From Vicinamibacterales bacterium (GTDB lineage: Bacteria; Acidobacteriota; Vicinamibacteria; Vicinamibacterales; 2-12-FULL-66-21): a stretch of 64,000 nucleotides of DNA. The DNA lies in NCBI GenBank assembly GCA_035495955.1, contig DATJFE010000067.1:19972-83971 (forward strand), written 5' to 3'. The notes under the pieces were generated by a model. It searched no databases, was not told the origin of the DNA, and worked only from the letters and a program-made list of their open reading frames with translations. Position 1 is the stretch's first letter, and the number at the start of each line of letters is the position of its first letter. This document shows, one piece after another, positions 1,873 through 50,959 of the stretch. Both the position numbers and the translations under genes were made by a program.

Positions 1873-1902
1873 TCCCCCCGATTCCGCAATTCCCCGATTC
1901 CC
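1873..1902. repeat. short direct repeat tccccgattcc x2 immediately after the thioesterase stop
   Basis: Sequence aatccccccgattccgcaattccccgattccc begins 2 nt after TAA 1869-1871. Confidence 0.6.
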
Positions 1903-1932
1903 AGGGCGCCGTCCAGGCGCGCGCTAGACCCC

Positions 1933-2139
1933 TCAGGTGCCGCCGAAACCGATCGTCACCGTTTCCCTATCGACGATGACAGGTACTTCGCGCCGACCGC
2001 GGCTGTACTCGAGCATCCGCGCCAGATCGGCGGCGTTCTTCTTGACGTTCACGTATTCGAACGGGACGCCCTCGTCCCGATAGTGATCGCGCGCCGCGAG
2101 GGTGTACGGGCACGTATCCTTGCCGAAGATCAGGACCAT
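1933..2139 (-). CDS. glutaredoxin-like small redox protein (CPYT monothiol-type motif)
   Basis: Last 68 aa of ORF 1933..2397: MVLIFGKDTCPYTLAARDHYRDEGVPFEYVNVKKNAADLARMLEYSRGRREVPVIVDRETVTIGFGG. This is the thioredoxin-fold layout of Grx/NrdH. ATG confirmed at 2139-2137. The upstream part of the ORF looks non-coding. Confidence 0.75.
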   Translation of the reverse strand: MVLIFGKDTCPYTLAARDHYRDEGVPFEYVNVKKNAADLARMLEYSRGRREVPVIVDRETVTIGFGGT

Positions 2140-2188
2140 GCTCAAACTGTAGCACTGCAGGCGTATCATCGTGCGCGAGAGGCCACCC

Positions 2189-4177
2189 ATGAACCTTACC
2201 GTCCGTCGTGTGTTTCTCGCCTCAATCGTCGCCTTGACCAGCGCCGCGGCGCTCCCCTTCGCGCAGGGGCGCGGAGCGATGACGACCGAACAGCAGCAGC
2301 GCCGATGGGAGATGGAGCGGGAGCTCCAGTCGATTGCCGTGGTCGATCGCAAGGTGATGATGCCGATGCGGGACGGCGTTCGGCTGGCGACCGACATCTA
2401 TCGGCCCAGGAACGCAACCGGGAAGGTGCCGACGATCTTCGTGCGCACGCCCTACAACTTCAACTTCTGGGACGTGCGCAACGGCGTGCCGGCCGATATG
2501 ACCGCGCCGCTGACCGCAGTCAAGCGCGGCTACGCCTACGTCGTCCAGAACGAGCGCGGGCACTTCTTCTCCGAAGGCAACTACGACATCCTGGGGCCGC
2601 CGCGGACGGATGGGTACGATGCGATCCAGTGGATGACGAAGCAGACATGGTCCAACGGAAAAGTTGGCACGACCGGCTGCTCGTCGACCGCGGAGTACCA
2701 GATGGGCGTGGCGGCGACCGAGCCGCCCGGCTTCGCGGCCATGAACGTCCAGGGGTTCGGCGCGGGCGTGGGGCGCGTGAAACCATATTACGAACAGGGA
2801 AACTGGTATCGGGGCGGCGCGGTGCAGATGCTGTTCGTCACCTGGATCTACGGGGAGCAGAACCAGGTGCGGCCGATGTTCCCGCGCGATACGCCGCAGG
2901 AGGATCTGATCCGCGCCTCGAGGGCGTTCGATCTGGCGCAGCAGCTCCCACCGGTCGACTGGTCCAAGGCGCTCTGGCACCTGCCGGTGCAGGACATCCT
3001 CGAGTCGGTCGATGCCCCGCACGGTATCTTCGCGGATGCGATGCCCGTCGAGACCGGCGGCCGCATGATTCAGCGGGAGCCAAACGATCCGGCGTGGTAC
3101 AAAGGCGGCCTGTACCACGACGACATGCCGATCAATCTGCCAGGTCTCTGGTACATGTCGTGGTACGACGTCTCGGTCGGCCCGAACCTGGCGCTCTACA
3201 ACCACGTGCGCAAGACGGCGCCGAAGGCGATCGCCGACCAACAATGGGCGATCATCGCTCCTGTCGCGCACTGCTCGTACACGCGGGCCGCGGAAGACAC
3301 GATCGTCGGCGAGCGCCACATGGGCGACGCCCGGCTCGACTACCAGGAGATCATGTATGGCTTCTTCGACAGGTTCCTGAAGGGGGAGAGCAGCGACCGA
3401 CTTGCGAAGCTGCCCAGAGTGACGTACTACACGATGGGCCTGAACAAGTGGCAGACATCGGAGACATGGCCGCCCGCTGGCGCGCGCCCCGTGACGTTCT
3501 ATCTATCGAGCGCCGGGCACGCCAACACGTTGACCGGTGACGGGCAGCTGATCCTCTCGGCGCCCGACACCGACATGCCGGATTCGTTCACGTACGATCC
3601 GATGAATCCGGTCCCGTCGTACGGCGGCAACGTCTGCTGCACCGGAACAGCGATCCAGGCGGGGTCGTTCGATCAGCGCCAGATGGAAGCGCGGCCCGAC
3701 ATCCTCGTATTCACATCGGAGCCGTTCAAGGAGGGGACCGAAGTCAGCGGCCCGATCGAGCCCACGCTGTTCGTGTCGTCGGACGCGCGGGACACGGATT
3801 TCACGATCAAAGTGATCGACGTCTATCCCGACGGGCGCGCCTATAACCTGGACGAGTCCATTCAACGGATGCGGTACCGCGACGGGTACGAGAAGCCGCC
3901 CGTCTGGATGGAACGCGGTCGTACCTACAAAGTCACGCTGCAGCCGCTGACGACGAGCAACTATTTCGAGGCGGGGCACAAGCTGCGCATCGAGGTCTCG
4001 AGCAGCAACTTTCCGCGCTTCGACCGCAACCTGAACACCGGCGGCCGGAACTACGACGAGGCCACCGGCATCGCCGCGCACAACGTCGTGCACCATTCGA
4101 AGCAGTATCCGTCGCAGGTGACGGTGAGGGTCGTGAAGCGGTCGTCCTCCACGGCGCAGCACGCGGATCGAAACTAG
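2189..4177 (+). CDS. CocE/NonD family hydrolase (X-Pro dipeptidyl-peptidase S15-like), secreted
   Basis: 668-aa ORF with signal peptide [27 protein letters not shown], a GCSSTAEYQ nucleophile-elbow-like motif, and the C-terminal beta-sandwich typical of CocE/NonD. ATG 2189 is preceded by gagagg; GTG 2171 is an alternative start. Confidence 0.85.
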
Positions 4178-4193
4178 CGTCCGCCCGAGAGGA

Positions 4194-4276
4194 CAGTGGG
4201 GTCGGATCTTGATTTTCGACGACAGTCGGACTTCACGTCCTCCTGCGCCGTCGAAAATCAAGATCCGACCCCACTG
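4194..4276. repeat. perfect 28-bp inverted repeat (27-nt loop) between convergent genes
   Basis: 4194-4221 cagtggggtcggatcttgattttcgacg is the exact reverse complement of 4249-4276 cgtcgaaaatcaagatccgaccccactg. It lies 17 nt after the CocE stop. Confidence 0.9.
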
Positions 4277-4330
4277 TCACTGGAAGAGGACGGCCGAGGT
4301 CAACTCCCAGACTATCGAACCCGCGTTTTG

Positions 4331-4359
4331 AGAGTTGGAGGTGGGGAGTTGGCAGTTGG
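4331..4359. repeat. period-7 tandem repeat (agttgg core) abutting the stop of the wHTH regulator gene
   Basis: agagttggaggtggggagttggcagttggc; agttgg occurs at 4333, 4347 and 4354. The minus-strand stop is at 4360-4362. Confidence 0.7.
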
Positions 4360-4755
4360 CTACGCCGGCTGAAAGCCGGGCGGCAGATCCGGCGACCGTT
4401 CGGGGCGCTTGGCCGCCTTGGGCAGCGCGTCGCGCACGACCTGTTCGAGCTCTTCGAGATAGGCCACGAAACGGCCGCGTCCCTCGCTCGTCAGGCGATA
4501 GAGCGTCTGTGGACGGCCGCCGTCGGTGCCGCGCCACGCTTCGACCAGGCCCGCTTCGAGCAGGACGTCGATATGCCGGCTCAAATTCCCGTCGGTCAGC
4601 GCGCAGAGCCGCTTCAGCTCGTTGAATACCGCGCCTTCCGGGCGCGTGACGAGCGAGGTCATGATCCCGAGCCGCGCCTTCTCGTGGAGGACCCGATCGA
4701 GTCCCTCGTACGCGTATCGGCCGGGTTCTTCGCGATGAGGCTGTTTCTTGGGCAT
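4360..4755 (-). CDS. winged-helix transcriptional regulator (ArsR/MarR-like wHTH)
   Basis: C-terminal 131 aa of ORF 4360..5016: MPKKQPHREEPGRYAYEGLDRVLHEKARLGIMTSLVTRPEGAVFNELKRLCALTDGNLSRHIDVLLEAGLVEAWRGTDGGRPQTLYRLTSEGRGRFVAYLEELE. ATG at 4755. It lies 2 nt downstream of the preceding membrane-protein gene. Confidence 0.8.
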   Translation of the reverse strand: MPKKQPHREEPGRYAYEGLDRVLHEKARLGIMTSLVTRPEGAVFNELKRLCALTDGNLSRHIDVLLEAGLVEAWRGTDGGRPQTLYRLTSEGRGRFVAYLEELEQVVRDALPKAAKRPERSPDLPPGFQPA

Positions 4756-9500: not shown

Positions 9501-9818
9501 GTGCTGGGCGGAATCGGCACGGGCAATCTGTGGTTCGACACGTCCGTGTTCTCGACGCCGGCAACGAATACGTTTGGGAACGCGAAGCGTAACGGCGTCC
9601 TCGATGGTCCGGGCTATGCGAACCTGGACGCGACGATCGCGAAGCTGTTCACACTGCCGCGCGGTGCGCACGGCGAATTCCGCGTGGACGTCTTCAACCT
9701 GACGAATACGCCGCATTTCAACAATCCGGCGTCGACGTACCTCGGCAACAACTTCGGCGTCGTCACGAGCGCCTTCGGCGAGCGATCGATGCGTTTCGGA
9801 GGGCGCGTCACGTTTTAG
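6534..9818 (+). CDS. TonB-dependent outer-membrane receptor with N-terminal carboxypeptidase-regulatory-like domain
   Basis: 1094 aa. Signal peptide ...VLFAASASAQA. CarboxypepD_reg-like segment GVTVTITEQNTNIQSTTTTNESGYYIFSNLKDGIYRVEAELTGF. Plug-like segment QETVTVTGETPILQTDRADTG. Terminal ...RFGGRVTF aromatic residue typical of beta-barrels. Confidence 0.9.
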   Translation: MMKRPTRAAAAAACLTVLFAASASAQAVKGGLLGNVVDQAGLALPGVTVTITEQNTNIQSTTTTNESGYYIFSNLKDGIYRVEAELTGFKKSLRKDIEVQVNTTVRIDMKLEVGAVQETVTVTGETPILQTDRADTGRVIQSVQLTEAPLGFNRNFQGMLLTVPGATRPFRPHSSFFNAQDSLSTNVNGQSRLANNVQIEGIDDNHRTGLLTTLIPSIEAIETVNITTSAYDAEFGRAGGAITNVTLRSGTNNLKGGVFVFGNTDSTNAPGYFSHTVPPSSYFQSGFTLGGPIQHNKLFFFGDYQHTADHGGATQRATIPPIAFRTGDFSSASTIIYDPATGNADGTGRTPFVGNVIPANRISPIAAALLAKVPAPNLSAANGQTNFQQDFTRIKNTDSFDTKITAQLSKSDQLSARLSFLRPKQTDPPIFGVYGGGGKDFSGTGIDTTYSTGANYTRAWSSTFISEFRGGLNYFHNEALAPDHGQTLASDLGIRGANIDEWTSGITTIDIGNGTASPLIGHANSLPWDRSERTAQFAAVGTKLWGNHTIKFGEDFRNTRDFLLQTQDNGGPRGRFQFRGGQTSIPSDGAATSGYANAIASFLLDVPSVVERDLKIVDPGVRFWAFFTFVQDKWQVNKSLTLDIGLRHEYYTPFKGLSDKGGLSNYDPVTNALQVAGYGSVSQSVGVKSYWKNFGPRLGASYRLNDKTVARAGYGVSTLPFPDNSYAYNFPVKQNNQFTAPNSFVAAGSMAAGFPDPIVANIPPSGLIDASTAALRAASFFHIKPDRHEGALHSFNVAVQRELPWQLTLDVAYVGNRGHDVETSYDENAATVLGLDDAGRPLFGPFKKTASVTTWIPLKTSYNSLQMKVDRRFSNGLLLNTSYTLGRGYSYNTGDSNGGIPTPADLALSWARTDQDRLHSFVESFVYQLPIGPAKRWINRGVASQVLGGWQVSGFFTAQSGTPINITMSNATLHAPGNTQRPNVSGTPNVLGGIGTGNLWFDTSVFSTPATNTFGNAKRNGVLDGPGYANLDATIAKLFTLPRGAHGEFRVDVFNLTNTPHFNNPASTYLGNNFGVVTSAFGERSMRFGGRVTF

Positions 9819-9871
9819 GTGCTGCCGGGCCTGCGGGGCCTACTGGTGCTGCAGGTGCTCAGGGTCCTACG
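9818..9871. repeat. 9-nt tandem repeat x6 starting inside the TAG stop of the TonB receptor gene
   Basis: ggtgctgcc gggcctgcg gggcctact ggtgctgca ggtgctcag ggtcctacg, counted base by base from 9818. Confidence 0.85.
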
Positions 9872-9892: not shown

Positions 9893-9930
9893 CGCCGCGA
9901 TCCTGTTTGGGGTCGCGGCGTTTTTGTTTT
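9893..9930 (+). terminator. intrinsic terminator of the TonB receptor gene
   Basis: Stem cgccgcgatcc (9893-9903) pairs with gggtcgcggcg (9910-9920) over 11 bp including one G-U. Loop tgtttg, followed by tttttgtttt. Confidence 0.85.
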
Positions 9931-11367: not shown

Positions 11368-11380
11368 CGGCCGGTGGGGC

Positions 11381-11415
11381 ATGAGCCATGAGCCCTGAGC
11401 CATGAGCCATAGAGC
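11381..11415. repeat. heptamer tandem repeat atgagcc x5 containing the start codon of the next gene
   Basis: atgagcc atgagcc ctgagcc atgagcc atagagc. The ATG of the fourth unit (11402) is the lipoprotein start. ATG 11381 is in frame but hits TGA at 11396. Confidence 0.85.
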
Positions 11416-12079: not shown

Positions 12080-13042
12080 ATGACCTCAGGGCCCAGGGTA
12101 TACGTCGCCGGGCACCGCGGCCTCGTCGGATCGGCCGTCGTGCGGCGGCTCCAGCGGAATCACAGCGTCCACGTCCTCACCGCGACGCGCGAACAGCTCG
12201 ATCTCCGCGACCAGGCCGCGGTGAACTACTGGTTCAAGGCCAATCGCCCGGAATATGTGTACCTCGTCGCCGGCACGGTCGGCGGGATCCTGGCCAATTC
12301 CACGCGCCCTGCGGAGTTCATCTACGACAACATGATGATTCACGCGACCGTCGTCGAGGCGGCTCACCGGTTCGGCGTGAAGAAGCTGCTGTACCTCGGG
12401 AGCTCGTGCATCTATCCGCGCAACTGCGACCAGCCGATGCGCGAGGAGGAGCTGCTCACCGGCGCGCTCGAGCCGACGAACGAGTCCTACGCGGTCGCCA
12501 AGATTGCCGGCATCAAGCTGTGCCAGGCATACCGGACCCAGTACGGCGACGATTTCATCTCGGCGATGCCGACGAATCTCTACGGGCCGAACGACAACTT
12601 CGATCTCGCCAGCTCGCACGTGCTGCCGGCGATGATCCGTAAGTTCCACGAGGCGAAGATCGCCGGCGCACGCGAAGTCGTCATTTGGGGCACCGGGTCG
12701 CCGCGGCGCGAGTTCCTGCACGTCGACGATCTCGCCGACGCGTGCATGTTCCTGATGGACCGCTACGACGAGGCGCCGCACATCAACGTCGGCACAGGCG
12801 AGGATTTGAGCATCCGTGAGCTCGCCGAGATGGTCCGATCCGTCGTCCATCCAGACGCGACGCTCGCCTTCGACACGTCCAAGCCCGACGGCATGCCGCG
12901 GAAGCTGCTCGATGTCTCGCGTCTACACGCGCTCGGCTGGCGCCATCGGATCGGCCTGCGCGACGGCATCGCTTCGACCTACCAGTGGTTCCTCACCCAC
13001 CAGGGAAGTCTGCGCGCCGGCCACGTCGCGCGCACGGCCTGA
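12080..13042 (+). CDS. fcl: GDP-L-fucose synthase (GDP-4-keto-6-deoxymannose 3,5-epimerase/4-reductase)
   Basis: 320 aa. [18 protein letters not shown] Rossmann motif, LGSSCIYPR and YAVAKIAG (YxxxK) motifs, length typical of Fcl/WcaG. Confidence 0.9.
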
Positions 13043-13047
13043 GAGAA

Positions 13048-13779
13048 ATGTCGCTGCGAATCGGATTCGACATGGATGGCGTGCTCGCCGACTTCGACTC
13101 GGCCTTTCGCGCCGTCGCGGAGCGCCTCTATGGGGCGCCGACGCCGCCGACGGGCGACGCCGATCCTGAAGCCGAACCGCGCGCGCAAGCCGAAGAAGAA
13201 GAAAAAAACGCGAGCGGCGACGAGGGGCAGGCGGGCGCGGAAGAGGCGAAGCAGCACGTTCATGCTCTTCGGCGCCGGCGCGATGCAGTCTGGCAGACGA
13301 TCGCCTCGACTCCCGACTTTTGGATGACGCTCAGGCCGGTGCAGGACGACGCCGTGCGGCGCATCCACGAGCTGGCGCTGCGCCATCGATGGGAGGTGTT
13401 CTTCCTCACGCAGCGGCCCGCAACCGAAGGCGATTCGGTCCAGCGCCAGACGCAGCAGTGGCTCATCGCGCAGGGATTCGATCTGCCGAGCGTGCTGCCG
13501 ATCGCCGGCTCGCGCGGCGCCGCCGCCGGCGCGCTTCGGCTTGATTATCACGTCGACGACAGCGCCAGAAACTGCATCGACATCAAGGCGGAATCCAGCG
13601 CAAAGCCGCTCCTGATCGTCGAATCCGGCGACACAGCCATGATCGCCCGCGCGCGGAGCCTCGGCATCGGCACCGCCGCCTCGATCTCGGAGTGCCTCAC
13701 GATTCTCGAAGAAGCGACGCTGAAGCAGGCCCAGCCGCGGCTGCTGCACAAGCTCGCGCAGCTCGTGGGGTGGGATTGA
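13048..13779 (+). CDS. HAD-superfamily hydrolase, 5'(3')-deoxyribonucleotidase (NT5C)-like, with an acidic low-complexity insert
   Basis: In-frame ATG 13048, 5 nt after the fcl stop, preceded by gagaga. MSLRIGFDMDGVLADFDSAF (DxDGV motif)...FFLTQRP...WL. Insert EAEPRAQAEEEEKNASGDEGQAGAEEAK. Confidence 0.6.
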   Translation: MSLRIGFDMDGVLADFDSAFRAVAERLYGAPTPPTGDADPEAEPRAQAEEEEKNASGDEGQAGAEEAKQHVHALRRRRDAVWQTIASTPDFWMTLRPVQDDAVRRIHELALRHRWEVFFLTQRPATEGDSVQRQTQQWLIAQGFDLPSVLPIAGSRGAAAGALRLDYHVDDSARNCIDIKAESSAKPLLIVESGDTAMIARARSLGIGTAASISECLTILEEATLKQAQPRLLHKLAQLVGWD

Positions 13780-13780
13780 T

Positions 13781-13850
13781 CGGAGGTCGGGTGACGGAGG
13801 TCGGGTGACGGGGGTCGGGTGAGGGGGGTCGCGTGCCGGGGGTTCGAGGT
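13781..13850. repeat. 14-nt tandem repeat cggaggtcgggtga x~5, G-rich on the + strand, starting 2 nt after the stop
   Basis: cggaggtcgggtga cggaggtcgggtga cgggggtcgggtga ggggggtcgcgtgc cgggggttcgaggt. It contains a canonical G4 motif at 13803-13828 (GGG-4-GGGGG-2-GGG-3-GGGGGG). Confidence 0.85.
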
Positions 13851-13863
13851 TCCGAGCGGTCGT

Positions 13864-13902
13864 TACGAAAAAAGAAAGGCCGGACCCCGCGGATCCGGCC
13901 TT
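13864..13902 (-). terminator. intrinsic terminator on the minus strand
   Basis: Minus-strand reading: aaggccgga-tccgcgggg-tccggcctt (9-bp stem, 13876-13884 pairs with 13894-13902), followed by tcttttttcg. Confidence 0.8.
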
Positions 13903-14119
13903 GCCTCCCTCCCGAGCGAATCGGAAATCCGATTAGCACGAGGAGTGCCAGCTTCAGCCGCTCGTCTGCACCTTTGGTCCGACGTCTGGACGCTGCAGGT
14001 AACCTGCACCGCGACCGTCAGTTATCAACGATGACTTTTGACAACGACCTTCGTTGGACCGATCGTCGGCGCGGCCCGGATTCAAGGGCTTGAATCCGGA
14101 GATCCAAACGGGAGTTGTG

Positions 14120-15073
14120 TCAGTTGAAACCGGCAACCCGGCGACGCAGCGTCTTCACGTGCTCCCAGATTTGCGCTGACTCCGAAGACGCGCGTTCCTC
14201 TTCATTGCTCTCGTCTTGCATCGCGTGCGGATCCGGATCCGCGCCGTCGCCGTGCGGCATCAGACGTAGGTACGCTTCGAGATCGCGCAGCGCCGACGCG
14301 AAATCTTCCATGTGATACGCGAGAAGGCCGCGGTCGCGAAGCTCCGAGAGCGCCGAAGGGTCGACCGCGAGCAGCAGGTTCGCGATTGCGCGCGCTTGCG
14401 GAAACGATCGCATCCGCACGTAGAGCCGCTTGAGATTGACCAGCATACGCACGACGATGTGCTGGCGGGTGGCGGTGGCGAGGAGCGCGCGATCGAACGC
14501 CGCCTCCTCGCCGAGATGCTGCCGCAGCAGTTGGCGGCAGTCGACTTCCGACAGCAGGGCGCCGGCATGGAATGGATCGATGATCGCATCCTCGGCACCC
14601 GTCTCGCGCTCGCCTGGCGCGCGCACGAGGAAGTGGCCGGGGAAGTTGACGCCTTCGAGCCTGAGTCCGGCGCGGCGGCCGATCTCCATGTAGATCGCCG
14701 CGAGGCTGATTGGAATCCCGAGCCGTCGATCGAGGACCTCGTTCAGGAAACTGTTTCGTGGATCGTCGTAGCGATCGCGGTTGCCGCTGAAGCCCAGCTC
14801 TTCGTAAAGGTAGGTATTGAGCGTCGCAATGCGCGCCGCGGTGCCCGCGGCATCCTGCCGCCGCAGCCGTCCCGATGCGGCTTCCCCCATTCGCTCCAGG
14901 CGCTGCAGGTACGGAGCGGGGTCGAGCGCCGGGTACTCCACGCGCGCGATCGCCAGGGCCGCCGGCGCCAGCGCCTCCCCGGGCTCGTTCAGCGCGCCAA
15001 GCAGATCTTCGGTGATCTGCGGAAGCCGCGACTGCAGGGACAGCGGCACGGAGCGATTGTAACGCGGACGCAC
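14120..15073 (-). CDS. SirB1/YchA-like protein (transglutaminase-like N-domain + TPR)
   Basis: 317 aa: ...LNTYLYEELGFSGNRDRYDDPRNSFLNEVLDRRLGIPISLAAIYMEIGRRAGLRLEGVNFPGHFLVR... then TPR-like ...ARAIANLLLAVDPSALSELRDRGLLAYHMEDFASALRDLEAYL. GTG start at 15073. Confidence 0.8.
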   Translation of the reverse strand: MRPRYNRSVPLSLQSRLPQITEDLLGALNEPGEALAPAALAIARVEYPALDPAPYLQRLERMGEAASGRLRRQDAAGTAARIATLNTYLYEELGFSGNRDRYDDPRNSFLNEVLDRRLGIPISLAAIYMEIGRRAGLRLEGVNFPGHFLVRAPGERETGAEDAIIDPFHAGALLSEVDCRQLLRQHLGEEAAFDRALLATATRQHIVVRMLVNLKRLYVRMRSFPQARAIANLLLAVDPSALSELRDRGLLAYHMEDFASALRDLEAYLRLMPHGDGADPDPHAMQDESNEEERASSESAQIWEHVKTLRRRVAGFN

Positions 15074-15111: not shown

Positions 15112-15222
15112 TCCGCAGCTCCCAACTCTCAGCTCCCCCATCCCCACTCCCAATCCGCGAGATCCGACATCCCACATCCGACCCCCGCCCCCGACCCCCG
15201 CCCCCCGACCCCCGACTCCCGA
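15112..15222. repeat. composite C-rich (on +) short-repeat tract between two minus-strand genes
   Basis: cagctcccaactctcagctcccccatccccactcccaatcc...gacccccgcccccgacccccgccccccgacccccgactcccgac. The right part (15182-15220) is a multi-tract G4 motif on the minus strand, directly after the HAD stop (15223-15225). Confidence 0.8.
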
Positions 15223-15879
15223 CTACAGGCGGCGGACGAACTCGGCCGTGATGGCATCCAGCGAGTCGACCACCACGTCGGCTTCGGTCAGCTTCTCGCG
15301 GGAATACGTGTGGGTCACCGCGATAGTCCGCATGCCCGCGCCGCGCGCCGACTGCAGCCCCCAGTGCGAGTCCTCGATCGCCGCGCAGCGCGCCGGATCG
15401 ACGCCGTGCAGTTCCGCGGCTCTGAGGTAGGGGTCCGGCGCCGGCTTGGTGCGTTCCGTATCGCCGGACGCGACGATGAAGCGGAACGCGCCGTCGAGGC
15501 CCGCGCCGCGCAGCATCAGCTCGATGTCGCGCCGCAGAGCGCCCGAGGCGATCCCGATCGGCCAGTGCGCCGACAGCCGGCGCACGCATGCGGCCGCGCC
15601 GCCATACAGGACGTCGGTGCCCGCGACGAGCGCCTCGAACCGGCGGCCCTTCTCGGCGATCAGCATCTCGATCTCCTCGTCGCCGAGCAGCAGTCCGTAA
15701 TCCGACGCCACCTGCCTGAACACGCCCTCGTCGTCGAATCCGAGATAGCGCGCGCAGTATTGCTCCTTCGTCAGCGAGACTCCGGCGGGCGCGAACAGTT
15801 CCTGATAAGTCCGCAGGTGGAGCGGCTCGGAGTCGGCCAGGACGCCGTCGAAATCGAAGACGATGGCTTTGATTGGCAT
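15223..15879 (-). CDS. HAD family hydrolase (beta-phosphoglucomutase/phosphatase-like)
   Basis: MPIKAIVFDFDGVLADSEPLHLRTYQELF... is the classic HAD motif I. ...IASGALRRDIE... then ...IEDSHWGLQSARGAGMRTIAV. ATG 15879 preferred; GTG 15915 is an alternative. Confidence 0.85.
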   Translation of the reverse strand: MPIKAIVFDFDGVLADSEPLHLRTYQELFAPAGVSLTKEQYCARYLGFDDEGVFRQVASDYGLLLGDEEIEMLIAEKGRRFEALVAGTDVLYGGAAACVRRLSAHWPIGIASGALRRDIELMLRGAGLDGAFRFIVASGDTERTKPAPDPYLRAAELHGVDPARCAAIEDSHWGLQSARGAGMRTIAVTHTYSREKLTEADVVVDSLDAITAEFVRRL

Positions 15880-15893
15880 CTCTCTCAACAGGC

Positions 15894-15951: not shown

Positions 15952-15967
15952 TCCTGTGTCGCCGTCC

Positions 15968-34068: not shown

Positions 34069-34120
34069 GCGAACCTGTTTCGCCGAAGCGAAGCGGAGGC
34101 GTGCCAGCGCCATTTTCCAA

Positions 34121-34231: not shown

Positions 34232-34239
34232 AGGTCTCA

Positions 34240-41522: not shown

Positions 41523-43690
41523 CGAATTTTAACCTGCCGCGCTTTCTCGGGTTCTCCGAACATCGTCCACAGTTGAGCCGCCAGCGCGCGTCCTTCGGGC
41601 GTCGGCGAGGCCCGCAGCAAATCGTCGATCGCCCGCTCGGAATCGGCGTCGCGCCCCATCGCGCGATACAGCATGGCGAGGCCGGCGCGGGCCCGGGTGT
41701 TGTGCGGAAAGAGGCGAATCTCTTCCTGGAAGCAGGGCTCGGCCTCCGGGTAGCGCTCGAGGTGAGCGAGGGAATCGCCGAGGTAATAGTTGAGCTCGTT
41801 GATCTGGATGGTGCGTCCGCGAAGCGCGTCGCGGGCCCGCATGAACGGCCCGAGCGCCTCGGCGTACCTGCCCTGGTTGTAGGCGATCAGCCCCTCGACG
41901 AACAGCGGCATCGGCAGCGTCGGATCCGCCTGCTGGGCGAGGCGGGCTTCGCGCAACGCGGCGTCGGGGTCGTGCCGCGCCAGCGCGATCTTGGCGAGCA
42001 GCTCGTGCGCCGCCGCGGGCGCGACGCTCACGGCGAGCTCCGCATGCTTCTGCGCTTCGTCGAGGCGGCCCAGTCGGAGCAGTCCGCCGCCCGCGCCGAG
42101 CAGGCTGCCCGCGTCCTTCGGATTGCGCTTGATCACTTCCCGGTACGCGCGCACGCCGTCTTCAGTGAGTCCCTGGCGCAGGCAGACTTCCGCGAGCTGG
42201 AGCCACGCGTCCGTCATTTCGGGATCGGCGGCGAGCAACTCGCGATAAAGAACCATCGCATCCGCGAACTTCAGCGCGCCCGCCAGGTCCGACGCGCGAC
42301 GATACTTTTCGAGGACCTGAATTTTGTCCTTCGGATCCGGCAGCGAATCGCCCGGCAGCGACAGCGACGCGCTGCTGCCGGTGCCGACGTAGCCCAGCGC
42401 CGCGAGGCGCTGGCGATCCTGCTCGTCGACGGCCGCCGGCGCCGCGATCGACGTCTTCGCAATCATCGATTCGAGCGCGCCGCGCATCGCCTGGCGGACC
42501 TGGGGCCGATCGGCGCCGATCGACTGCGATTCGGATCGATCGCGCTCCAGGTCGTACAGCTCGTCGCGCGGAGCGCGGATGAAGTGATACCGCGAATCGA
42601 CGAGCCCGTAAAGCTCGCTCCATCCGAAGTGGTACCGCGAATAGAGCGCTTCGGAATAGATGGGCGCATCCTGCAGGGCGCCGGTACCTTCGAGCAGTGG
42701 TCGCAGCGACCGGCCCCGGAGCTCCGTCCGCGCGGGCGCGCCGGCCAGATCGAGGATCGTCGGCGCCAGATCGATGTGCTGCACCGGCGCCGCCACGCGG
42801 CGTCCTCGATGGCGTCCGGGCAGCTTGACGATCAGCGGGACGCGGGTGGTTTCCTGATACAGAAACAAGCCGTGCTCCTGCTCGCCGTGATCGCCGAGAC
42901 CTTCGCCGTGATCCGCGAGCAATACGATCGTCGCGCGATCGTAGAGACCCGCGGATCGCAGGCGATCGAGGAAACGGCCGACCAGCTCGTCGCTGTAGGC
43001 GATCTCGCCGTCGTAGGGGCTGTAGGCGGCGAAGCGGGCCGGCGGCGCGTACGGCTTGTGCGGCTCGTAGAAGTGCAGGAACAGGAAGAACGGCTTCGCG
43101 CGATCGCGCGCGTCGATCCAGGAGATCGCCGCCGCCAGCGTCTTGTCGCCGCCGCGCTGAACCTGGCCGATCGATCGCTCGCCGGACGAAGCCGGCATGT
43201 CGCTGTCGTACGTATCGAATCCCTGATTGATCCCGGTTGCCGCGCGCAGCACGTACGCGGAGACGAACCCGCCGGTCGGCCACCCGCGCTCCTGCAGCGC
43301 GCGCTGGATGAACCATTGGCCCTTCTTGACCGTGAAGCCGACGTTGTCACGGACCCCGTGCTCGAAGGGGAGCTGGCCCGAAAGGAGACTGGTGTGGGCC
43401 GGAAGCGTCTGCGGCGCGTGCGACCAGGCGTGCTCGAACACGACGCCTTCGGCCGCCAGGGTATCGATGTTCGGTGTCCGGACTTTCGTATATCCGTACG
43501 CCGGAAGATGATCGGCGCGGAGCGTATCGATCGAGATCAGGACGATCGGTCCCGGCGCCGGCGGCCGCGTTGCCCGCCAGAGCGCCCAGGCCACGCCCAG
43601 AACGATGACCAGCGTGATGGCGATCCATGCAGCGCGCCTCGCCCCTCGCGCCTCGCGTCTCGGACCTCGCGGCTCGCGCCTCGCGCTCAT
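41519..43690 (-). CDS. sulfatase-like (alkaline phosphatase superfamily) hydrolase/transferase with N-terminal membrane anchor and C-terminal TPR domain
   Basis: ...IVLISIDTLRADHLPAYGY...NIDTLAAEGVVFEHAWSHAPQTLPAHTSLLSG... (Thr where Cys-type sulfatases have Cys), ...LLADHGEGLGDHGE..., then about 300 aa of TPR. ATG 43690 overlaps the upstream stop (ATGA). Confidence 0.85.
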   Translation of the reverse strand: MSARREPRGPRREARGARRAAWIAITLVIVLGVAWALWRATRPPAPGPIVLISIDTLRADHLPAYGYTKVRTPNIDTLAAEGVVFEHAWSHAPQTLPAHTSLLSGQLPFEHGVRDNVGFTVKKGQWFIQRALQERGWPTGGFVSAYVLRAATGINQGFDTYDSDMPASSGERSIGQVQRGGDKTLAAAISWIDARDRAKPFFLFLHFYEPHKPYAPPARFAAYSPYDGEIAYSDELVGRFLDRLRSAGLYDRATIVLLADHGEGLGDHGEQEHGLFLYQETTRVPLIVKLPGRHRGRRVAAPVQHIDLAPTILDLAGAPARTELRGRSLRPLLEGTGALQDAPIYSEALYSRYHFGWSELYGLVDSRYHFIRAPRDELYDLERDRSESQSIGADRPQVRQAMRGALESMIAKTSIAAPAAVDEQDRQRLAALGYVGTGSSASLSLPGDSLPDPKDKIQVLEKYRRASDLAGALKFADAMVLYRELLAADPEMTDAWLQLAEVCLRQGLTEDGVRAYREVIKRNPKDAGSLLGAGGGLLRLGRLDEAQKHAELAVSVAPAAAHELLAKIALARHDPDAALREARLAQQADPTLPMPLFVEGLIAYNQGRYAEALGPFMRARDALRGRTIQINELNYYLGDSLAHLERYPEAEPCFQEEIRLFPHNTRARAGLAMLYRAMGRDADSERAIDDLLRASPTPEGRALAAQLWTMFGEPEKARQVKIR
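43632..43687. repeat. cctcgcg-type short tandem repeat forming the first ~19 codons of the sulfatase-like gene
   Basis: gcgcgcctcgcccctcgcgcctcgcgtctcggacctcgcggctcgcgcctcgcgctc. On the minus strand it encodes MSARREPRGPRREARGARRA. Confidence 0.75.
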
Positions 43691-45792: not shown

Positions 45793-46110
45793 GCTGGGCG
45801 GCGACGACGCACAACGCAGAGTCACAGAGGTCACTGAGACGCACGGAGGACGATCTTTGTGCGTCGGCAGGCTGTCGCGTTGCTCGGGCCGGCGGCAAGC
45901 CTCACGATCGGTCCCACCGTGGGGAAGCGCCTTCGCCTAGACGACACGGGGATCAGACGCAGTCGCCGCACGCGTGACCAGTCGTGAGGCCATTGACCGG
46001 CCGCGGCGGGCTCACCCTCTGATCTCTGTGCGTCTCTGTGCACTCCGCGCCTCTGTGTTGATCTGTTCCGTTGACTTCACAACCACGCGCGTCGGTCGGA
46101 ATTCAAAAAG

Positions 46111-46116: not shown

Positions 46117-46125
46117 CCAGCGGTG

Positions 46126-48546
46126 ATGTCGAGCCTTCACTCCGGGACCGTTCTCGCGAGCGCCGCTGCGCTGGCGATCTTGGCCACGCCGGCGTTCCAC
46201 GGCGTGGCGCGAGCCGCTTCGAGCGGGCAGCCGGCGCAGCGCGCCTCGGCGGCGACGCGGACCGGCATCGATCTCGCCAGGCTCGACGCCATTCCGGCGA
46301 TCGTCGAGCAGGCAATCGCCGACAAGAAGCTGCCCGGCGCGGTCATACTCATCGGCCGCGGCGATCGTGTCGTCTATCGGAAAGCGATTGGCCGCCGCGC
46401 CGTCGAACCGTCGTCCGAGCCGATGACGCTCGACACCATGTTCGACCTCGCGTCGCTGACGAAAGTCGTGGCGACGACGACGAGCGTGATGAAGCTCGTG
46501 GAGGAGGGCAAGATTCGTCTGAGCGATCGCGTGTCGACGTTCGTTCCCGGTTTCGAGCGCCACAACAAGACGGACATCACGATCCGCCACTTGATGACGC
46601 ACACCTCCGGTCTGCGTCCCGATCTGGATCTCGCCGATGCATGGAGCGGATATGACAAGGCGATCGAACTGGCGATCGACGAAGCGCCGACCGCGCCGCC
46701 CGGCGAGCGATTCGTCTACAGCGACATCAATTACCTTCTGCTCGGCGATATCGTGAAGCGCGTCGGCGGTATGCCGCTCGAGCGGTTTGCCGCGAAACAC
46801 GTGTTCGCGCCGCTCGGGATGAGCGACACGATGTTCCGGCCGCCGGCGGCCCTCGCGGCGCGCATCGCCCCGACCGAGCGGGTCGACGGCCGGATGCTCC
46901 GGGGCGTCGTGCACGATCCGACCTCGCGCCGGATGGGCGGGGTCGCCGGACACGCCGGGCTCTTCAGCACGGCGGCGGATCTCTCGATCTTCTGCCGCAT
47001 GCTGCTGAACGGCGGACGCTACAACGGCGTCCGGGTGCTGGCCCCGTTGACCGTCGCGAAGATGACGGCGCCCGCGAGCGCGCCCGGCGATCCGAACGTC
47101 CGCGGGCTCGGCTGGGACATCGACTCGTCGTTCTCCGCGAACCGCGGCGAGCTGCTGCCGATTGGATCGTACGGCCACACGGGCTTCACCGGGACGTCGA
47201 TCTGGATCGATCCGGCGACGCGCGAGTTCGTCGTGTTCCTTTCCAACCGCGTGCATCCCGACGGCAAGGGCGACGTGACGCCGCTGCGAGCCCGGATCGG
47301 AACGATTGCCGCGGCCGCCATCACCGACGTGGCGCCCGACATCGCGCGCACGCGGCCGATGACCGGCCGCGACTTCGGCGCGTCGGGCCCCGCGCCCGCT
47401 CGGCCGAAGACGGGCCCCGTGCTGACCGGACTCGACGTGCTCCGGGCCGGCGGCTTCGCGCCGCTGCGCGGGAAGCGCGTCGGCCTCGTTACCAATCAGA
47501 CCGGCCTCGCGCGGGATCGCGAGACGACGATCGACCTGCTGTTCAACGCGAAGGACGTCAGGCTGGCGGCGCTCTTCAGTCCGGAGCACGGCATCCGCGG
47601 CGTGCTCGACGCGAATGTGCCCGCCGAAGTGGACGAGAAGACGAAGCTGACGATCAACTCGCTCTACGGCGAGACCGAGAGGCCGACCGCCGCCATGCTC
47701 GAAGGGCTCGACGCGATCGTCGTCGATCTGCAGGACATCGGCGTGCGCTTCTGGACGTACGCGACCACGACGGCCTACGTGCTCGAAGAAGCCGCGAAGC
47801 GCAGGCTCCCGGTGTTCGTCCTGGATCGGCCGAACCCGATAGACGGCTGGCAGATCGAGGGGCCGGCGCTCGACAGGGAGTCGAGCGGCTTCACCGGCTA
47901 TTTTCTCGCGATGCCGATCCGGCACGGGATGACGCTCGGCGAGCTGGCACGCCTCTACAACGCGGAAAACAAGATCGGCGCGGATCTCACCGTCATCGGC
48001 ATGAAGAACTGGCGGCGCGACGACTGGTTCGACGAGACCGCGCTGCCCTGGATCAACCCCTCGCCGAACATGCGCAACATGAACGCGGCGGCGCTCTATC
48101 CGGGCATTGGCGCGATCGAAGGGACCAACATCTCGGTCGGCCGCGGCACCGACACCCCGTTCGAGCACGTCGGCGCGCCCTGGATCGACGGCGCCCGGCT
48201 GTCCGACACGCTCAACGGGCGGGCGCTGCCGGGCGTCCGCTTCTATCCCGTCCGCTTCACGCCGGCGTCGAGCAAGTACGCCGGCGAGTCGTGCGGCGGC
48301 GTCTTCATCATCGTGACCGATCGAACGGCGCTGCATCCCGTGCGCGTCGGGCTCGAGATCGCCGCCGCGCTCAACCGGATGTATCCGGCGCAGTATCAGC
48401 TCGAGACCGCGGCGCGCCTTCTCGGCTCGCGCGAAACACTCGCACGGATCAGGAACGGCGACGATCCGGCCGCGATCGCGGCGTCGTGGGCGCTCGCGGA
48501 ATCGAAGTGGCGATCGTTGCGTTCCAGATATCTCCTCTATCCGTAG
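46126..48546 (+). CDS. fusion protein: N-terminal beta-lactamase-fold serine hydrolase (AmiE/AmpH-like) + C-terminal DUF1343/NamZ-like exo-beta-N-acetylmuramidase domain
   Basis: Signal-like N-terminus. SxxK motif DLASLTKVV, YSDIN, HTG in GSYGHTGFTGTSIWIDP. Then ...TGLDVLRAGGFAPLRGKRVGLVTNQTGLARDRETTIDLLFNAKDVRLAALFSPEHGIRG... is typical of DUF1343. Confidence 0.85.
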   Translation: MSSLHSGTVLASAAALAILATPAFHGVARAASSGQPAQRASAATRTGIDLARLDAIPAIVEQAIADKKLPGAVILIGRGDRVVYRKAIGRRAVEPSSEPMTLDTMFDLASLTKVVATTTSVMKLVEEGKIRLSDRVSTFVPGFERHNKTDITIRHLMTHTSGLRPDLDLADAWSGYDKAIELAIDEAPTAPPGERFVYSDINYLLLGDIVKRVGGMPLERFAAKHVFAPLGMSDTMFRPPAALAARIAPTERVDGRMLRGVVHDPTSRRMGGVAGHAGLFSTAADLSIFCRMLLNGGRYNGVRVLAPLTVAKMTAPASAPGDPNVRGLGWDIDSSFSANRGELLPIGSYGHTGFTGTSIWIDPATREFVVFLSNRVHPDGKGDVTPLRARIGTIAAAAITDVAPDIARTRPMTGRDFGASGPAPARPKTGPVLTGLDVLRAGGFAPLRGKRVGLVTNQTGLARDRETTIDLLFNAKDVRLAALFSPEHGIRGVLDANVPAEVDEKTKLTINSLYGETERPTAAMLEGLDAIVVDLQDIGVRFWTYATTTAYVLEEAAKRRLPVFVLDRPNPIDGWQIEGPALDRESSGFTGYFLAMPIRHGMTLGELARLYNAENKIGADLTVIGMKNWRRDDWFDETALPWINPSPNMRNMNAAALYPGIGAIEGTNISVGRGTDTPFEHVGAPWIDGARLSDTLNGRALPGVRFYPVRFTPASSKYAGESCGGVFIIVTDRTALHPVRVGLEIAAALNRMYPAQYQLETAARLLGSRETLARIRNGDDPAAIAASWALAESKWRSLRSRYLLYP

Positions 48547-48548: not shown

Positions 48549-48597
48549 TCGGTCATCGGTCATCGGTCATCGGTCATCGGTCATCGGTTGTCGGCCA
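48549..48597. repeat. heptamer tandem repeat tcggtca x5 perfect + 2 variant, between convergent stops
   Basis: Counted unit by unit: 48549, 48556, 48563, 48570, 48577 (perfect), 48584 tcggttg, 48591 tcggcca. It starts 3 nt after TAG 48544-48546. Confidence 0.95.
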
Positions 48598-48605
48598 TCG
48601 TCCCG

Positions 48606-49031: not shown

Positions 49032-49052
49032 GATATCGGGCGATGACCCGAT

Positions 49053-49901
49053 TCATGTGAGCCTGTCGGCGATCATCAGGATCCAGAGCAGCGGCAGGTA
49101 CGTGATGGATCCGAAGAACACGCGGCGGGCGTCGCGGATCGAGCGGGTGCGCGCGAATCTCAGGGTCAGCGCGAGGAAGGCGAGGCCGAGCACCAGCGCG
49201 CCGGCGAAATACGCGTCCGCCGTCATGTGCAGGAGCGTCGGCGCGAGGCTGACCGGCACGAGGGCGGCCGCGTACACGACCGCCTGGCGCCCCGTGCTCC
49301 GGCCGTCCGGCTCGATCACCGGCAGCATCTGAAAACCGGCGCGCGCGTAGTCGTCGCGGTACATCCAGGCGATCGAGAGGAAGTGGGGGAGCTGCCACAG
49401 GAACATGATGCCGAAGAGCACCCACGCCTTTGCCGGGAGCTCGCCCGACGCCGCGGCCCAGCCGATGATCGGCGGGAGGGCGCCCGGAATGGCGCCGATG
49501 ACGGTGCCGAAGGAGCTGCGCCGCTTCAGCGGCGTGTAGATCGCCACATACGTCGTCAGCGTTGTCAGCGCGACCGCCGCGGCGAGGACGTTCGAGGACG
49601 CGGCGATCATCAGCGCGCCGGCGATCGTAATGGCGCTGGCGAACAGGACGGCTTCGATCGGCTGCAGCCGCTGATCCGGCAGCGGCCGCGTGCGGGTCCG
49701 CCGCATGAGCGCATCGAGATCGCGCTCGAGCACCTGATTGAACGCCGAGGCGCCCCCGGCGACCAGACCCGTGCCGAGGAGGAGGCCGAGAATCCGCAGC
49801 GCCCCGAGCGGCTCGCCATCCGCCATGCCGTAGCCCACCAGCGTCGACGCCACGACGAGCATGTTCAGCCGCGGCTTTGCCAGCGCGACGAAATCGAGCA
49901 T
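49053..49901 (-). CDS. ctaB: protoheme IX farnesyltransferase (heme O synthase)
   Basis: MLDFVALAKPRLNMLVVASTLVGY...ASAFNQVLERDLDALMRRTRTRPLP... is UbiA-family. ATG 49901 is chosen so that it does not overlap ctaA; ORF start 49979 is an alternative. Confidence 0.85.
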   Translation of the reverse strand: MLDFVALAKPRLNMLVVASTLVGYGMADGEPLGALRILGLLLGTGLVAGGASAFNQVLERDLDALMRRTRTRPLPDQRLQPIEAVLFASAITIAGALMIAASSNVLAAAVALTTLTTYVAIYTPLKRRSSFGTVIGAIPGALPPIIGWAAASGELPAKAWVLFGIMFLWQLPHFLSIAWMYRDDYARAGFQMLPVIEPDGRSTGRQAVVYAAALVPVSLAPTLLHMTADAYFAGALVLGLAFLALTLRFARTRSIRDARRVFFGSITYLPLLWILMIADRLT

Positions 49902-49939
49902 GCGGGCGCGCGAAGCCGGAATCGCGACGGCGTCCGTTC

Positions 49940-50959
49940 TCACGATCGCGCCTCCGCCGCCGCGGAAGCCGCAGAACACGCGGAACCCGCGGAACCCCGG
50001 ACCCCCGGAACTGTGGCACCATGAAACGCGGAAAGCCCCCGGAACACGCGCAGCGACAAGACCAGCGACGTCCCCAGAACCAGCGCTCCGTTGACCACGT
50101 GCGCGGTGTTGATCAGCACATCCCTGCCGCTCCAGATCACGAACGCGCCGAGCGCGATCTGCACAACCACGAATGCCACGAGCGCGGTCACGGTACGTTT
50201 CAGACCCGGACGGCAGCTATGGCGACGCCAGATCCGCGCGGCCGTGGCCAGAACGAGCAGCGTCACGACCCCGGCACCCACACGGTGCGCGAAATGGATG
50301 GCGATGTGCGGGTTCCAGGACGGCGGCAGCAGGTGTCCGAACGACAACGGAAAGTCAGGAATCGCCAGACCCGATCCCGTGTGCCGCATCGTCGCGCCGA
50401 GCAGGATCTGCACGTAAATCGCGGCGGTGGTCGCGGCTGTCAACCGCCGCAGCGACGGATCGTCGACTGGCGACTCGGCGTCCCGCCACGTCTGCGACGT
50501 CACAACGGCCAGCGTCAGCGTCAGGCAGAAGAACAACTGGGCGAGCGCGGCATGTCCGGTGGAAACCGCGGGCGGCAGGAAGAACAGCACCGTGATTCCG
50601 CCGAGCACTCCCTGCAGGACTACCGCGCCCAGGCACGCGACGCCGAGCCAGCGGACCCAGCGGCGGGTTTCGATGCGCCAGGTCCAGATCGCGAGAATGA
50701 TGGTCAGGAAGCCGACGCTGCTCGCGATGAGTCGATGCGAGTGCTCGTACCGCACGCCGCCTACCATCTTGCTCAGGGGGAAGGCGAACATGTTCAGGCC
50801 GTAGGTCGTGGGCCAGTCGGGAACCGACAGGCCCGAATCGGTGCTCGTGACCAGGCCGCCCGCCGCGATCAGCACCACCGTGCACGCCGCCACGAACTTT
50901 GCGTAGCGGTGGTGCCACACGATCGAGGCTCGAGGCTCGAGGTTCGAGGTCATCGACAC
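49940..50959 (-). CDS. ctaA: heme A synthase (COX15/CtaA family)
   Basis: ...VLIAAGGLVTSTDSGLSVPDWPTTYGLNMF...YEHSHRLIAS...FAHRVGAGV... with 8 TM segments. GTG 50959 (aagg 7 nt upstream) or ATG 50953. Both termini are encoded by short tandem repeats. Confidence 0.85.
   Translation of the reverse strand: MSMTSNLEPRASIVWHHRYAKFVAACTVVLIAAGGLVTSTDSGLSVPDWPTTYGLNMFAFPLSKMVGGVRYEHSHRLIASSVGFLTIILAIWTWRIETRRWVRWLGVACLGAVVLQGVLGGITVLFFLPPAVSTGHAALAQLFFCLTLTLAVVTSQTWRDAESPVDDPSLRRLTAATTAAIYVQILLGATMRHTGSGLAIPDFPLSFGHLLPPSWNPHIAIHFAHRVGAGVVTLLVLATAARIWRRHSCRPGLKRTVTALVAFVVVQIALGAFVIWSGRDVLINTAHVVNGALVLGTSLVLSLRVFRGLSAFHGATVPGVRGSAGSACSAASAAAEARS
49962..50011. repeat. gcggaac-type short repeat inside the 3' tail of ctaA
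   Basis: gcggaagccgcagaacacgcggaacccgcggaaccccggacccccggaac encodes VPGVRGSAGSACSAAS on the minus strand. Confidence 0.7.
50924..50951. repeat. heptamer repeat cgaggct x4 inside the first codons of ctaA
   Basis: cgaggct cgaggct cgaggtt cgaggtc encodes (M)TSNLEPRAS on the minus strand. Confidence 0.85.

Follow-up and report, generated by a model that had tools for sequence, protein, structure and literature searches.

Introduction

Why should short tandem repeats, built from many different units, lie directly against the stop codons of ordinary bacterial genes, and do they do anything once they are there? Since 2007 it has been asked why some bacteria accumulate repeats of the heptamer type in intergenic DNA and whether these act, and the DNA considered here provides a high-density case from an abundant, little-studied soil lineage, the Vicinamibacterales (Acidobacteriota). 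The sequence under study, referred to below as the window, is a 64-kb stretch of the chromosome of a Vicinamibacterales soil bacterium (GC content 66%), in which ~93% of the bases between 1 and 53.7 kb are coding and in which arrays of short head-to-tail repeats, first pointed out in a preliminary description, occupy many of the remaining spacers. Arrays were detected with Tandem Repeats Finder (TRF) and are given in window coordinates, and the gene map was assembled from codon statistics and Pfam. Contigs of the same population, which is present in soil samples JGI 3300050218/3300050219 and SRR35795377, were obtained by exact-protein look-ups in soil metagenomes. For comparison across the order, the window was pooled with 86 Vicinamibacterales-like NamZ loci (1.0 Mb; 1.06 Mb in total), the NamZ-fusion protein of the window (46123-48546) having its closest relatives, at no more than 77-80% identity in genome and metagenome scans, in metagenome-assembled genomes (MAGs) of Vicinamibacterales. 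Judged from these sequences, the arrays are probably hypermutable long simple sequence repeats (SSRs) of 7 nt, and also of 8, 9 and 14 nt, that were born by slippage and are passively tolerated in the least constrained DNA.

Results

The arrays exceed chance and are confined to non-coding DNA

The arrays are strongly confined to non-coding DNA, where most lie just past stop codons and, where a terminator is recognizable, 5' of it. Between 1872 and 50963 the listed arrays occupy 947 of 3129 intergenic nt (30.3%) but 184 of 45963 coding nt (0.4%). The preliminary description had proposed comparison with coding sequence and with shuffled controls, and the excess survives both: the whole window holds 13 arrays with a score of at least 50, against 1.8±1.2 (maximum 5) in 100 block-wise dinucleotide shuffles, and 10 intergenic arrays with a score of at least 40, against 0.56±0.75 (maximum 3) in 200 spacer-by-spacer dinucleotide shuffles. 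Period 7 accounts for nine of 13 window arrays, the remainder being mainly of period 9, 13/14 or 8. Judged by eye, the + strand of the window has G-rich and C-rich arrays in about equal number, which speaks against a chromosome strand bias.

Nine loci lie between -1 and +5 nt from a stop codon, as had been claimed, and these include loci in spacers of 170-360 nt, where such flush placement would be very unlikely if arrays were placed uniformly. The arrays at 36073-36177 and 48549-48600 take up whole convergent spacers. The statement that almost every gene boundary carries an array was too broad, as one is present in 13 of the 21 spacers that are 20 nt or longer and at ~16-17 of 35 gene boundaries in the interval 1872-50963.

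The stop codons themselves offered two candidate explanations, neither of which we retain. An apparent preference for TAG (8 of 11 array-adjacent stops in the window vs 8 of 32 others) is not repeated in the pooled loci, where array-adjacent stops are TGA in 11 cases, TAG in six and TAA in three against a background of 28/15/8; as pooled usage equals the background, the excess in the window is treated as chance. A three-frame 'stop trap' would need stop triplets in the units, and these occur in few of them (13781, 11380), most units lacking them.

Near-identical strains differ by whole units

The arrays are hypermutable and change by whole units: strains that are >99% identical differ by units, and those that are 94-96% identical differ by entire arrays. 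Array 13781 is shorter by exactly one 14-nt unit in the metagenome contigs L170 and L171, and array 30413 is longer by four heptamers (+28 nt) in L168, which is 99.0% identical to the window. All three contigs match the window at 99-99.8% identity. The unit change is the sole gap in the alignments of L170 (5.6 kb) and L168 (2.9 kb), while L171 has one further gap, of 1 nt, within the loop of the terminator at 9893-9920. A comparison of copy number between strains had been suggested at the outset, and its result leaves slippage-based variation, or a by-product of polymerase activity, as the best supported of the roles then listed. At the next level of divergence, array 4331 is identical in the 99.8% identical contigs L163 and L165, altered in L166 and L167, and missing from the 96% identical L164. 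The same holds among relatives: L085 and L086 (98.6% identical) show a two-unit difference, whereas in the pair L019 and L131 (94.4% identical) two inverted-array elements are present in one strain and absent from the other. At the L019 8757 site L131 retains only a short dyad, GGCTGATG/GCCATCGGCC, and at the L019 18879 site only a degenerate right arm.

Whole-unit differences between L131 and L019 also occur in in-frame coding repeats, with a 12-nt unit in the NamZ orthologue (L131 11155-11194, L019 ~11119) and, in another gene, GGTGCTG-type units of 27/28 nt (L019 5811-5917).

Short-read contigs often end inside arrays, as they might if the arrays were artefacts of assembly or sequencing, an explanation that we find scarcely credible. 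Arrays 4331, 9818, 11380, 13781, 30413 and 50923 are spanned with identical flanks and units in several independent assemblies from different samples; in contigs that match the window at 99-100% identity and come from several independent soil metagenomes, 4331, 9818, 11380 and 50923 are unchanged (9818 and 11380 in L170/L171, 50923 in L172/L173); and arrays of this sort are found in dozens of related MAGs, long-read MAGs included. As independent metagenome contigs have the same arrays, these are not an assembly artefact, a doubt that the preliminary description had itself raised. For arrays 34121, 36073 and 43632 the exact-protein look-ups gave no strain contigs covering them.

The short-read/Logan contigs L081, L082, L163, L169, L171 and L173 stop inside arrays or at their edges, at window positions 48591, 48563, 1900, 30423, 13821 and 50926, respectively; L163 thus terminates at array 1873-1902, and L081 and L082, which are 100% identical, both terminate inside array 48549-48600. 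Such ends indicate that the repeats systematically fragment metagenome assemblies at gene boundaries.

A proposed slippage model for arrays at stop codons

In the model that we favor, arrays would be born and resized by replication slippage and kept only where a 7-nt step is harmless, with selection purging them from gene interiors, where they would cause frameshifts, and from divergent promoter spacers. A deletion bias would trim unique, unconstrained DNA until the array meets the stop codon, which marks the boundary of constraint, and the far side of the array would retain the terminator or the promoter and ribosome-binding site of the next gene. Inverted pairs of arrays could arise through template switching, fold-back copying or the symmetric growth of a small dyad, the last of these suggested by the comparison of L131 with L019. 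Most arrays would have no sequence-specific function, and some may have side effects, by forming a 3' hairpin or a G-quadruplex, by altering a 5' leader, or by acting as a frameshift switch at the 5' end of a gene.

The pooled loci agree with such confinement. Among 92 non-redundant arrays, 68 (74%) are intergenic although only ~11% of the DNA is non-coding, and most of those within genes either have a period divisible by 3 (9/12/15/27) or stand at the edge of a gene. Periods of 7 (31 arrays), 9 (20), 8 (14) and 14 (10) prevail. The window arrays that have been taken into the ends of open reading frames (ORFs), 17775 and 49960 in C-terminal tails and 43632, can be counted on the same side. Several arrays include the stop codon or the gene end as their first unit, and of 82 arrays 22 are no more than 3 nt from a stop, where 10.5 would be expected. 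Polar growth away from the stop, which would leave the purest units beside it, was considered and is unsupported (11 vs 5, p 0.21).

Several findings nevertheless weigh against tolerance alone. Simple slippage does not predict that 26 of 68 arrays (38%) have an inverted partner, defined as tandem reverse-complement units within 300 nt, compared with 0-1 in controls; inverted pairs are thus a major architecture, even if the other 42 arrays (62%) lack such a partner. The sense strand is G-rich for arrays within 20 nt of a stop (25:9, p 0.009), whereas array-free 3' flanks are balanced (109:111). Near-identical pairs of units number 26 against 12.2±3.0 expected by chance, and the related units TCGGTCA, TCGGTCC (L120/L124) and TTCGGTTC occupy the NamZ-DUF420 spacer of lineages whose proteins are 62-72% identical. 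Relatives of similar GC content, finally, differ in array density, which runs from 0 to 3.4 per 10 kb. It is 0.39 in comparison loci from outside the Vicinamibacterales (mainly Terriglobia and Verrucomicrobiota such as Opitutaceae) vs 0.92 within the order.

Most units are unique despite this recurrence. The earlier claim of a unit that differs from locus to locus holds in part, as about seven window loci share related units. Units of a TYGGGNG/CCCGACN-AACTCCC family are found at 4331, 13781, 15112-15223, 17775, 26868, 30413 and 36073-36177, and CGCGGAA-type units are shared by 33887 and 49960.

Could the arrays be selected 3' modules?

Passive tolerance does not predict the sense-strand G bias, the frequency of inverted pairs or the fact that arrays have long persisted in one spacer, and these features keep alive a second interpretation, namely that the arrays are selected structural modules of 3' untranslated regions (3'UTRs) and intercistronic spacers, analogous to repetitive extragenic palindromes (REP) and bacterial interspersed mosaic elements (BIME). 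Hairpins formed by inverted arrays, or G-quadruplexes formed by G3N4 units, would then pause RNA polymerase, shield mRNA 3' ends from exonucleases or insulate convergent genes. On the sequences at hand we hold this to be possible, if clearly less likely than tolerated slippage products. In the pooled loci the median distance of an array is 15.5 nt to a stop and 79 nt to a start, and in co-directional spacers the stop is the nearer of the two for 34 of 46 arrays. Divergent spacers are depleted: co-directional, convergent and divergent spacers hold 46, 18 and 4 arrays where their lengths predict 34.8, 12.8 and 20.4 (p 8e-5). G-richness and inverted pairing point in the same direction, and in the two convergent spacers of the window that arrays fill, the repeats are the sole sequence between the genes. 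Distant relatives, moreover, have arrays at the same spacer, and many relatives have arrays, with different units, at the NamZ stop boundary.

Predicted folding gives a divided answer. Inverted arrays give strong predicted hairpins in two places, 34115-34250 (z -6.7) and 15880-15968 (z -3.4), and five of the six G-quadruplex (G4) motifs of the window fall within arrays (13781, 15195, 30427, 36074/36114). Single-orientation arrays, by contrast, show no folding beyond that of shuffles (z 0 to +1.4), and ~14 other loci have no G4 motif; a G-quadruplex as the unifying feature was for that reason rejected, the motif being present at only 4-5 loci. Most arrays have neither a fold nor a G4 motif. Arrays are also gained, lost and resized among near-identical strains, their units are highly diverse, and a scan of the window against Rfam returned tRNA-Glu only, with no family at the arrays. 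For the Xanthomonas repeats discussed below, no regulatory role was found (Rehm et al., PMC4692102).

A more specific role, that of terminator, had been listed in the preliminary description and does not fit most arrays. An intrinsic terminator closes a transcription unit at its 3' end with a GC-rich hairpin that runs directly into a T tract. Canonical terminators of this kind stand 20-30 nt 3' of 9818, 13781 and 33887, so that these three arrays lie inside 3'UTRs, and the arrays themselves have no T tracts and, when single, do not fold. On the + strand, the terminator beyond array 9818-9871 (9893-9930, hairpin 9893-9920) has a 12-bp stem and a T tract and that beyond array 33887-34012 (34033-34068) has a 9-bp GC stem and T8. 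A hairpin/terminator lies at 13876-13902, downstream of array 13781.

It is tempting to speculate that a transcription-coupled process acting past the end of translation both makes and uses the arrays, with ribosome-free, G-rich nascent RNA promoting R-loops or G4 structures that seed and orient the tandem duplications, although we think this unlikely. The arrays and their fold-back copies would on this view be retained as 3'UTR modules of a REP-like kind throughout the Vicinamibacterales and, convergently, in Xanthomonas and Nostoc. If true, such a process would explain jointly why arrays stand flush with stops, why they are G-rich on the sense strand and why 38% occur in inverted pairs.

Other repeats of the same spacers deserve mention here. 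The 3' spacer after the NamZ stop holds different kinds of repeat in different relatives. In L010, downstream of the NamZ locus, 13720-14260 consists of three tandem ~190-nt units, each made of (CAGGAGAT)n, a loop, (ATCTCCTG)n and a conserved tail, a higher-order repeat of hairpin-forming arrays whose unit resembles window 15894-15957. Relatives free of arrays have REP-like GC-rich hairpins past the NamZ stop, such as GTAGCGCAGGGCTTCAGCCCTGC and CTTCCGCCTAAAGGCGGAAG, with sites in L007/L104 (~12335-12400), L010 (~12420-12450), L003/L093, L090, L102, L141 and L122.

Are the arrays carried by a mobile process?

Relatives also contain inverted array pairs around cores of 50-250 nt. These pairs, together with the presence or absence of whole arrays between strains and the recurrence of units, above chance, at unrelated loci within and between genomes, could be read as the footprint or cargo of a mobile process, either elements like miniature inverted-repeat transposable elements with tandem-repeat termini or REP-like sequences spread by a transposase of the REP-associated tyrosine transposase (RAYT) type. 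We consider this very improbable. The loci have in common no conserved core, no terminal inverted repeat and no target-site duplication, most units are unique, and the variation is in single units; nor is there a transposase, RAYT (IS200/IS605-like) included, among the scanned ORFs of the 64-kb window. The dyad of the same unit that L131 retains at the L019 8757 site is compatible with growth in place, although a palindrome-stimulated deletion in L131 is also conceivable.

The individual arrays

Essentially all of the arrays first listed were recovered by TRF or in the sequence itself, those at 1873, 4331 and 9818 and the 45809/46015 pair being weak or degenerate. Most lie in spacers, as described, whereas 43632 is in the coding N-terminus of a sulfatase gene and 49960 in the C-terminal tail of CtaA.

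Among the arrays that follow stop codons, a weak 8-nt array of CCCCAATT-like units (1873-1902) begins 1 nt past the TAA of a thioesterase gene in a convergent spacer (TRF 1876-1902, period 8 x 3.4, score 33). Degenerate heptamers of the GGGAGTT/CCAACTC type (4331-4359, - strand; TRF score <30) abut the TAG of an HTH_34 regulator gene (4360-4755, - strand). Degenerate 9-mers (GGNNCTNCN) on the + strand at 9818-9871 begin at the TAG of a TonB-type receptor gene (TRF 9822-9841); they had been given as six copies of a 9-mer, but their units are only ~55-65% alike and the TRF score is 33. At 13781-13850 (+ strand; TRF 13781-13843, score 91) 4.5 copies of a 14-mer, itself equal to the heptamers TCGGGTG+ACGGRGG, start 1 nt past a TGA and contain a G4 motif at 13803-13828. 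About 16 heptamers on the - strand, TCGGGGG shading into TTGGGAG, abut the TAG (15223) of a HAD hydrolase gene at 15112-15223 (TRF 15134-15179 and 15178-15223, the latter 7 x 6.7 with a score of 71); this array has a G4 motif at 15195-15220 and shows no fold (z +1.4 vs shuffles). Units of 9/13/22 nt with the sequence CGCGGAMTACGG(C) directly follow the TAG that ends the second TonB-type receptor gene on the + strand, at 33887-34012 (TRF 33886-34008, scores 95-112; z -2.8). The convergent spacer at 36073-36177, 105 nt in length, consists of G-rich heptamers followed by CCCGACG x8.6 (TRF 36115-36176, score 55) with 0 nt to either TAG, has G4 motifs on both strands and folds no better than shuffles, and TCGGTCA x7.4 at 48549-48600 (TRF score 83) takes up the convergent spacer of 59 nt that separates the NamZ-fusion gene from the DUF420 gene.

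A near-perfect palindrome at 4192-4278, with a stem of ~30 bp and a minimum free energy (MFE) of -72.5 kcal/mol (z -10.4), lies where the S15 peptidase and HTH regulator genes converge, in the spacer between them, and is distinct from array 4331-4359; L166/L167 (96-99% identical) are without one arm and the loop.

Inverted architecture is seen at other loci. The CAGGAGA/TCTCCTG pair at 15894-15957, between two - strand genes, forms a hairpin (TRF 15933-15957, score 43; MFE -35.0, z -3.4). At 34121-34231, six copies of GGTGCGCGA are followed by six of its reverse complement (9-mer arrays, TRF 34122-34179 and 34177-34227) in a predicted hairpin with a ~47-bp stem that ends 17 nt 5' of the ATG at 34249 (MFE -85.8, z -6.7). 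Weak inverted CACAGAG and CTCTGTG arrays (45809-45865 and 46015-46069), ~150 nt apart in a divergent spacer, are detected by TRF only at 46023-46041 (score 38), and the entire spacer that holds them has a fold z of -2.5/-3.4.

Arrays at the 5' ends of genes are those that bear on phase variation, in which the number of units would switch or tune the adjacent gene as in a contingency locus. At 11380-11415 on the + strand, five copies of CATGAGC (period 7 x 5.0; TRF score 56) hold the ATG of a lipoprotein gene (11402) in the last unit. CCCGACA x4.6 (30413-30445, - strand; TRF 30413-30444, score 50), with a G4 motif at 30427-30451, lies in a divergent spacer 11 nt 5' of the ATG of an ABC-transporter ATPase gene and is the array that differs by four units among strains. 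CGCGCCT x7.7 (43632-43687, - strand; TRF 43633-43686, score 73) is coding and falls in the N-region of a sulfatase-TPR protein (SARREPRGPRREARGARRA), where it is translated into Arg-rich MSARREPRGPRREARGARRAA followed by a transmembrane helix; the ATG of this gene (43690) overlaps the TGA of an upstream paralogue as ATGA. Being at the 5' coding end, a change of one unit in either direction would shift the frame of the sulfatase-TPR gene. TCGAGGC x3.9 (50923-50951, - strand; TRF 50923-50949, score 47) lies between an upstream stop (50964) and the conserved CtaA start, and is either 5' untranslated sequence or the first 10 codons of CtaA. Copy number does differ among strains, and on the sequence evidence a switching role is plausible only for these few 5'-end arrays; as an account of the arrays in general it is improbable. 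About 12 arrays follow stop codons, where their length would have no obvious effect on expression, their neighbors are housekeeping or metabolic genes (CtaA/B, FadN-type, peptidases), and divergent promoter spacers are depleted of arrays.

The interval 43632-43690 has the classical layout of phase variation, here in a soil bacterium. In the CATGAGC array, three ATGs lie 5' of the lipoprotein start and out of frame with it (11381-11402); of the two that were checked, 11381 and 11388, each begins a 5-codon mini-ORF terminated by TGA.

The remaining arrays are within or at the ends of genes. AACTCCC x4.3 (17775-17805, + strand; TRF score 46) lies in the final 14 codons of an HlyD-family gene (stop 17817), 26 nt 5' of the AcrB start. 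Its reverse complement, TTGGGAG x4.4 (26868-26898, - strand; TRF score 41), is the sole truly gene-interior array of the window and occupies an inter-domain linker of a 3HCDH-ECH fusion gene (Pfam domains 128-395 and 523-664). Six copies of CCGCGGAAC (period 9; 49960-50011, - strand; TRF score 62) lie in the C-terminal tail of the CtaA ORF, past its COX15 domain (residues 19-297 of 339), in the start region of ctaB.

The genes of the window are of types common in Acidobacteriota, among them CarboxypepD_reg + OMP_b-brl_4 receptors, MacB/FtsX permeases, sulfatase-TPR proteins, AcrB/HlyD, a FadN-type beta-oxidation cluster and CtaA/CtaB. A tRNA-Glu(CTC) gene at 53710-53784 marks a change: from there to 64000 the GC content is 0.60-0.64, codon scores are lower, no tandem array reaches a score of 40, and the genes encode a sulfatase, a radical-SAM/SPASM maturase and MacB/FtsX permeases. 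The region 53710-64000 may be of different origin.

Discussion

Several well-known classes of repeat resemble the arrays in one respect or another. CRISPR arrays consist of repeats of 23-55 nt with unique spacers of similar length, whereas the units here are of 7-14 nt and abut one another directly, with no spacers, so that the initial exclusion of CRISPR holds. REP and BIME sequences are dispersed copies of one imperfect palindrome of 20-40 nt; they occupy 3' spacers, often convergent ones, and form hairpins. The arrays are similar in their 3' location and in their ability to form hairpins, but the building block is a locus-specific direct repeat of 7-14 nt, and with no dispersed 20-40-nt palindromic unit the exclusion of REP/BIME was likewise correct. 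Contingency SSRs, as in Haemophilus and Neisseria, have units of 1-5(7) nt and lie in the promoters of surface genes or in their 5' coding regions. The arrays share with them a hypermutable number of units and, in a few cases (43632, 30413, 11380), a position at the 5' end of a gene, and differ in that most follow the stop codons of ordinary metabolic genes.

The preliminary description had found no described class that behaves in this way, but in our analysis the arrays match heptamer-type long SSRs, a class already described yet poorly understood. In the account that two later papers give of the work of Mrazek, Guo and Shah (PNAS 2007, via PMC4692102 and PMC4679880), long SSRs have units of 5-11 nt, heptanucleotides being the commonest, are over-represented relative to randomized sequence, are intergenic, occur with many units per genome in the large genomes of free-living bacteria, and are proposed to stem from polymerase slippage. 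As far as that account goes, the window arrays are alike in their head-to-tail units (7, 8, 9, and 14 = 2x7), in lengths beyond what composition predicts, in the prevalence of heptamers, in being intergenic with units that are not multiples of 3 kept out of genes, and in whole-unit polymorphism; they are unlike in making up ~30% of intergenic bases and in lying flush with stop codons. In the literature, we found no paper that joins Vicinamibacter with tandem repeats and no account of this class in Acidobacteriota/Vicinamibacterales.

Cyanobacterial short tandemly repeated heptamers (Calothrix/Nostoc; cited in PMC4692102) and the TAACTGA direct repeats known from Beggiatoaceae, Cyanobacteria and Bacteroidetes (MacGregor 2015, PMC4679880) are intergenic tandem heptamers that change between strains by 7-nt indels and have a few fixed units across the genome, the TAACTGA repeats lying mainly just 5' of start codons. 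The window arrays are similarly tandem, intergenic and subject to unit-step indels, but have many units and mostly come after stops.

What sets the window arrays apart from the known systems is the phylum, the diversity of units, the density of arrays and their tightness against stop codons. There are practical consequences as well, since the arrays break short-read metagenome assemblies and risk being mis-annotated as N- or C-terminal coding sequence, and the loci with documented strain-level unit variation offer concrete targets for further work.

The closest parallel is provided by the GGGAATC repeats of Xanthomonas and the GGGGA(C/T)T repeats of Nostoc/Anabaena, which are 89-93% intergenic and lie on average 28 nt from the neighboring ORF (Rehm et al. 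2015, PMC4692102). Downstream of genes they are G-rich on the coding strand, they are under-represented between divergent ORFs, they vary in length among close relatives, and they are transcribed; in Xanthomonas they also form paired inverted arrays, and the function of the repeats was concluded to be unknown (Rehm et al. 2015, PMC4692102). Those repeats have one dominant G4-forming unit for which four copies are preferred, whereas here there are many units, G4 motifs occur at 4-5 loci only, and most window arrays lack the G4 heptamer-repeat pattern (G3+N1-7 x4, at least 4 copies). The positional rules are nonetheless the same, as the arrays of the window and of the pooled loci lie near ORFs, are G-rich on the coding strand downstream of genes, are rare in divergent spacers and form inverted pairs (compare PMC4692102), and this agreement argues for a common cause across phyla.

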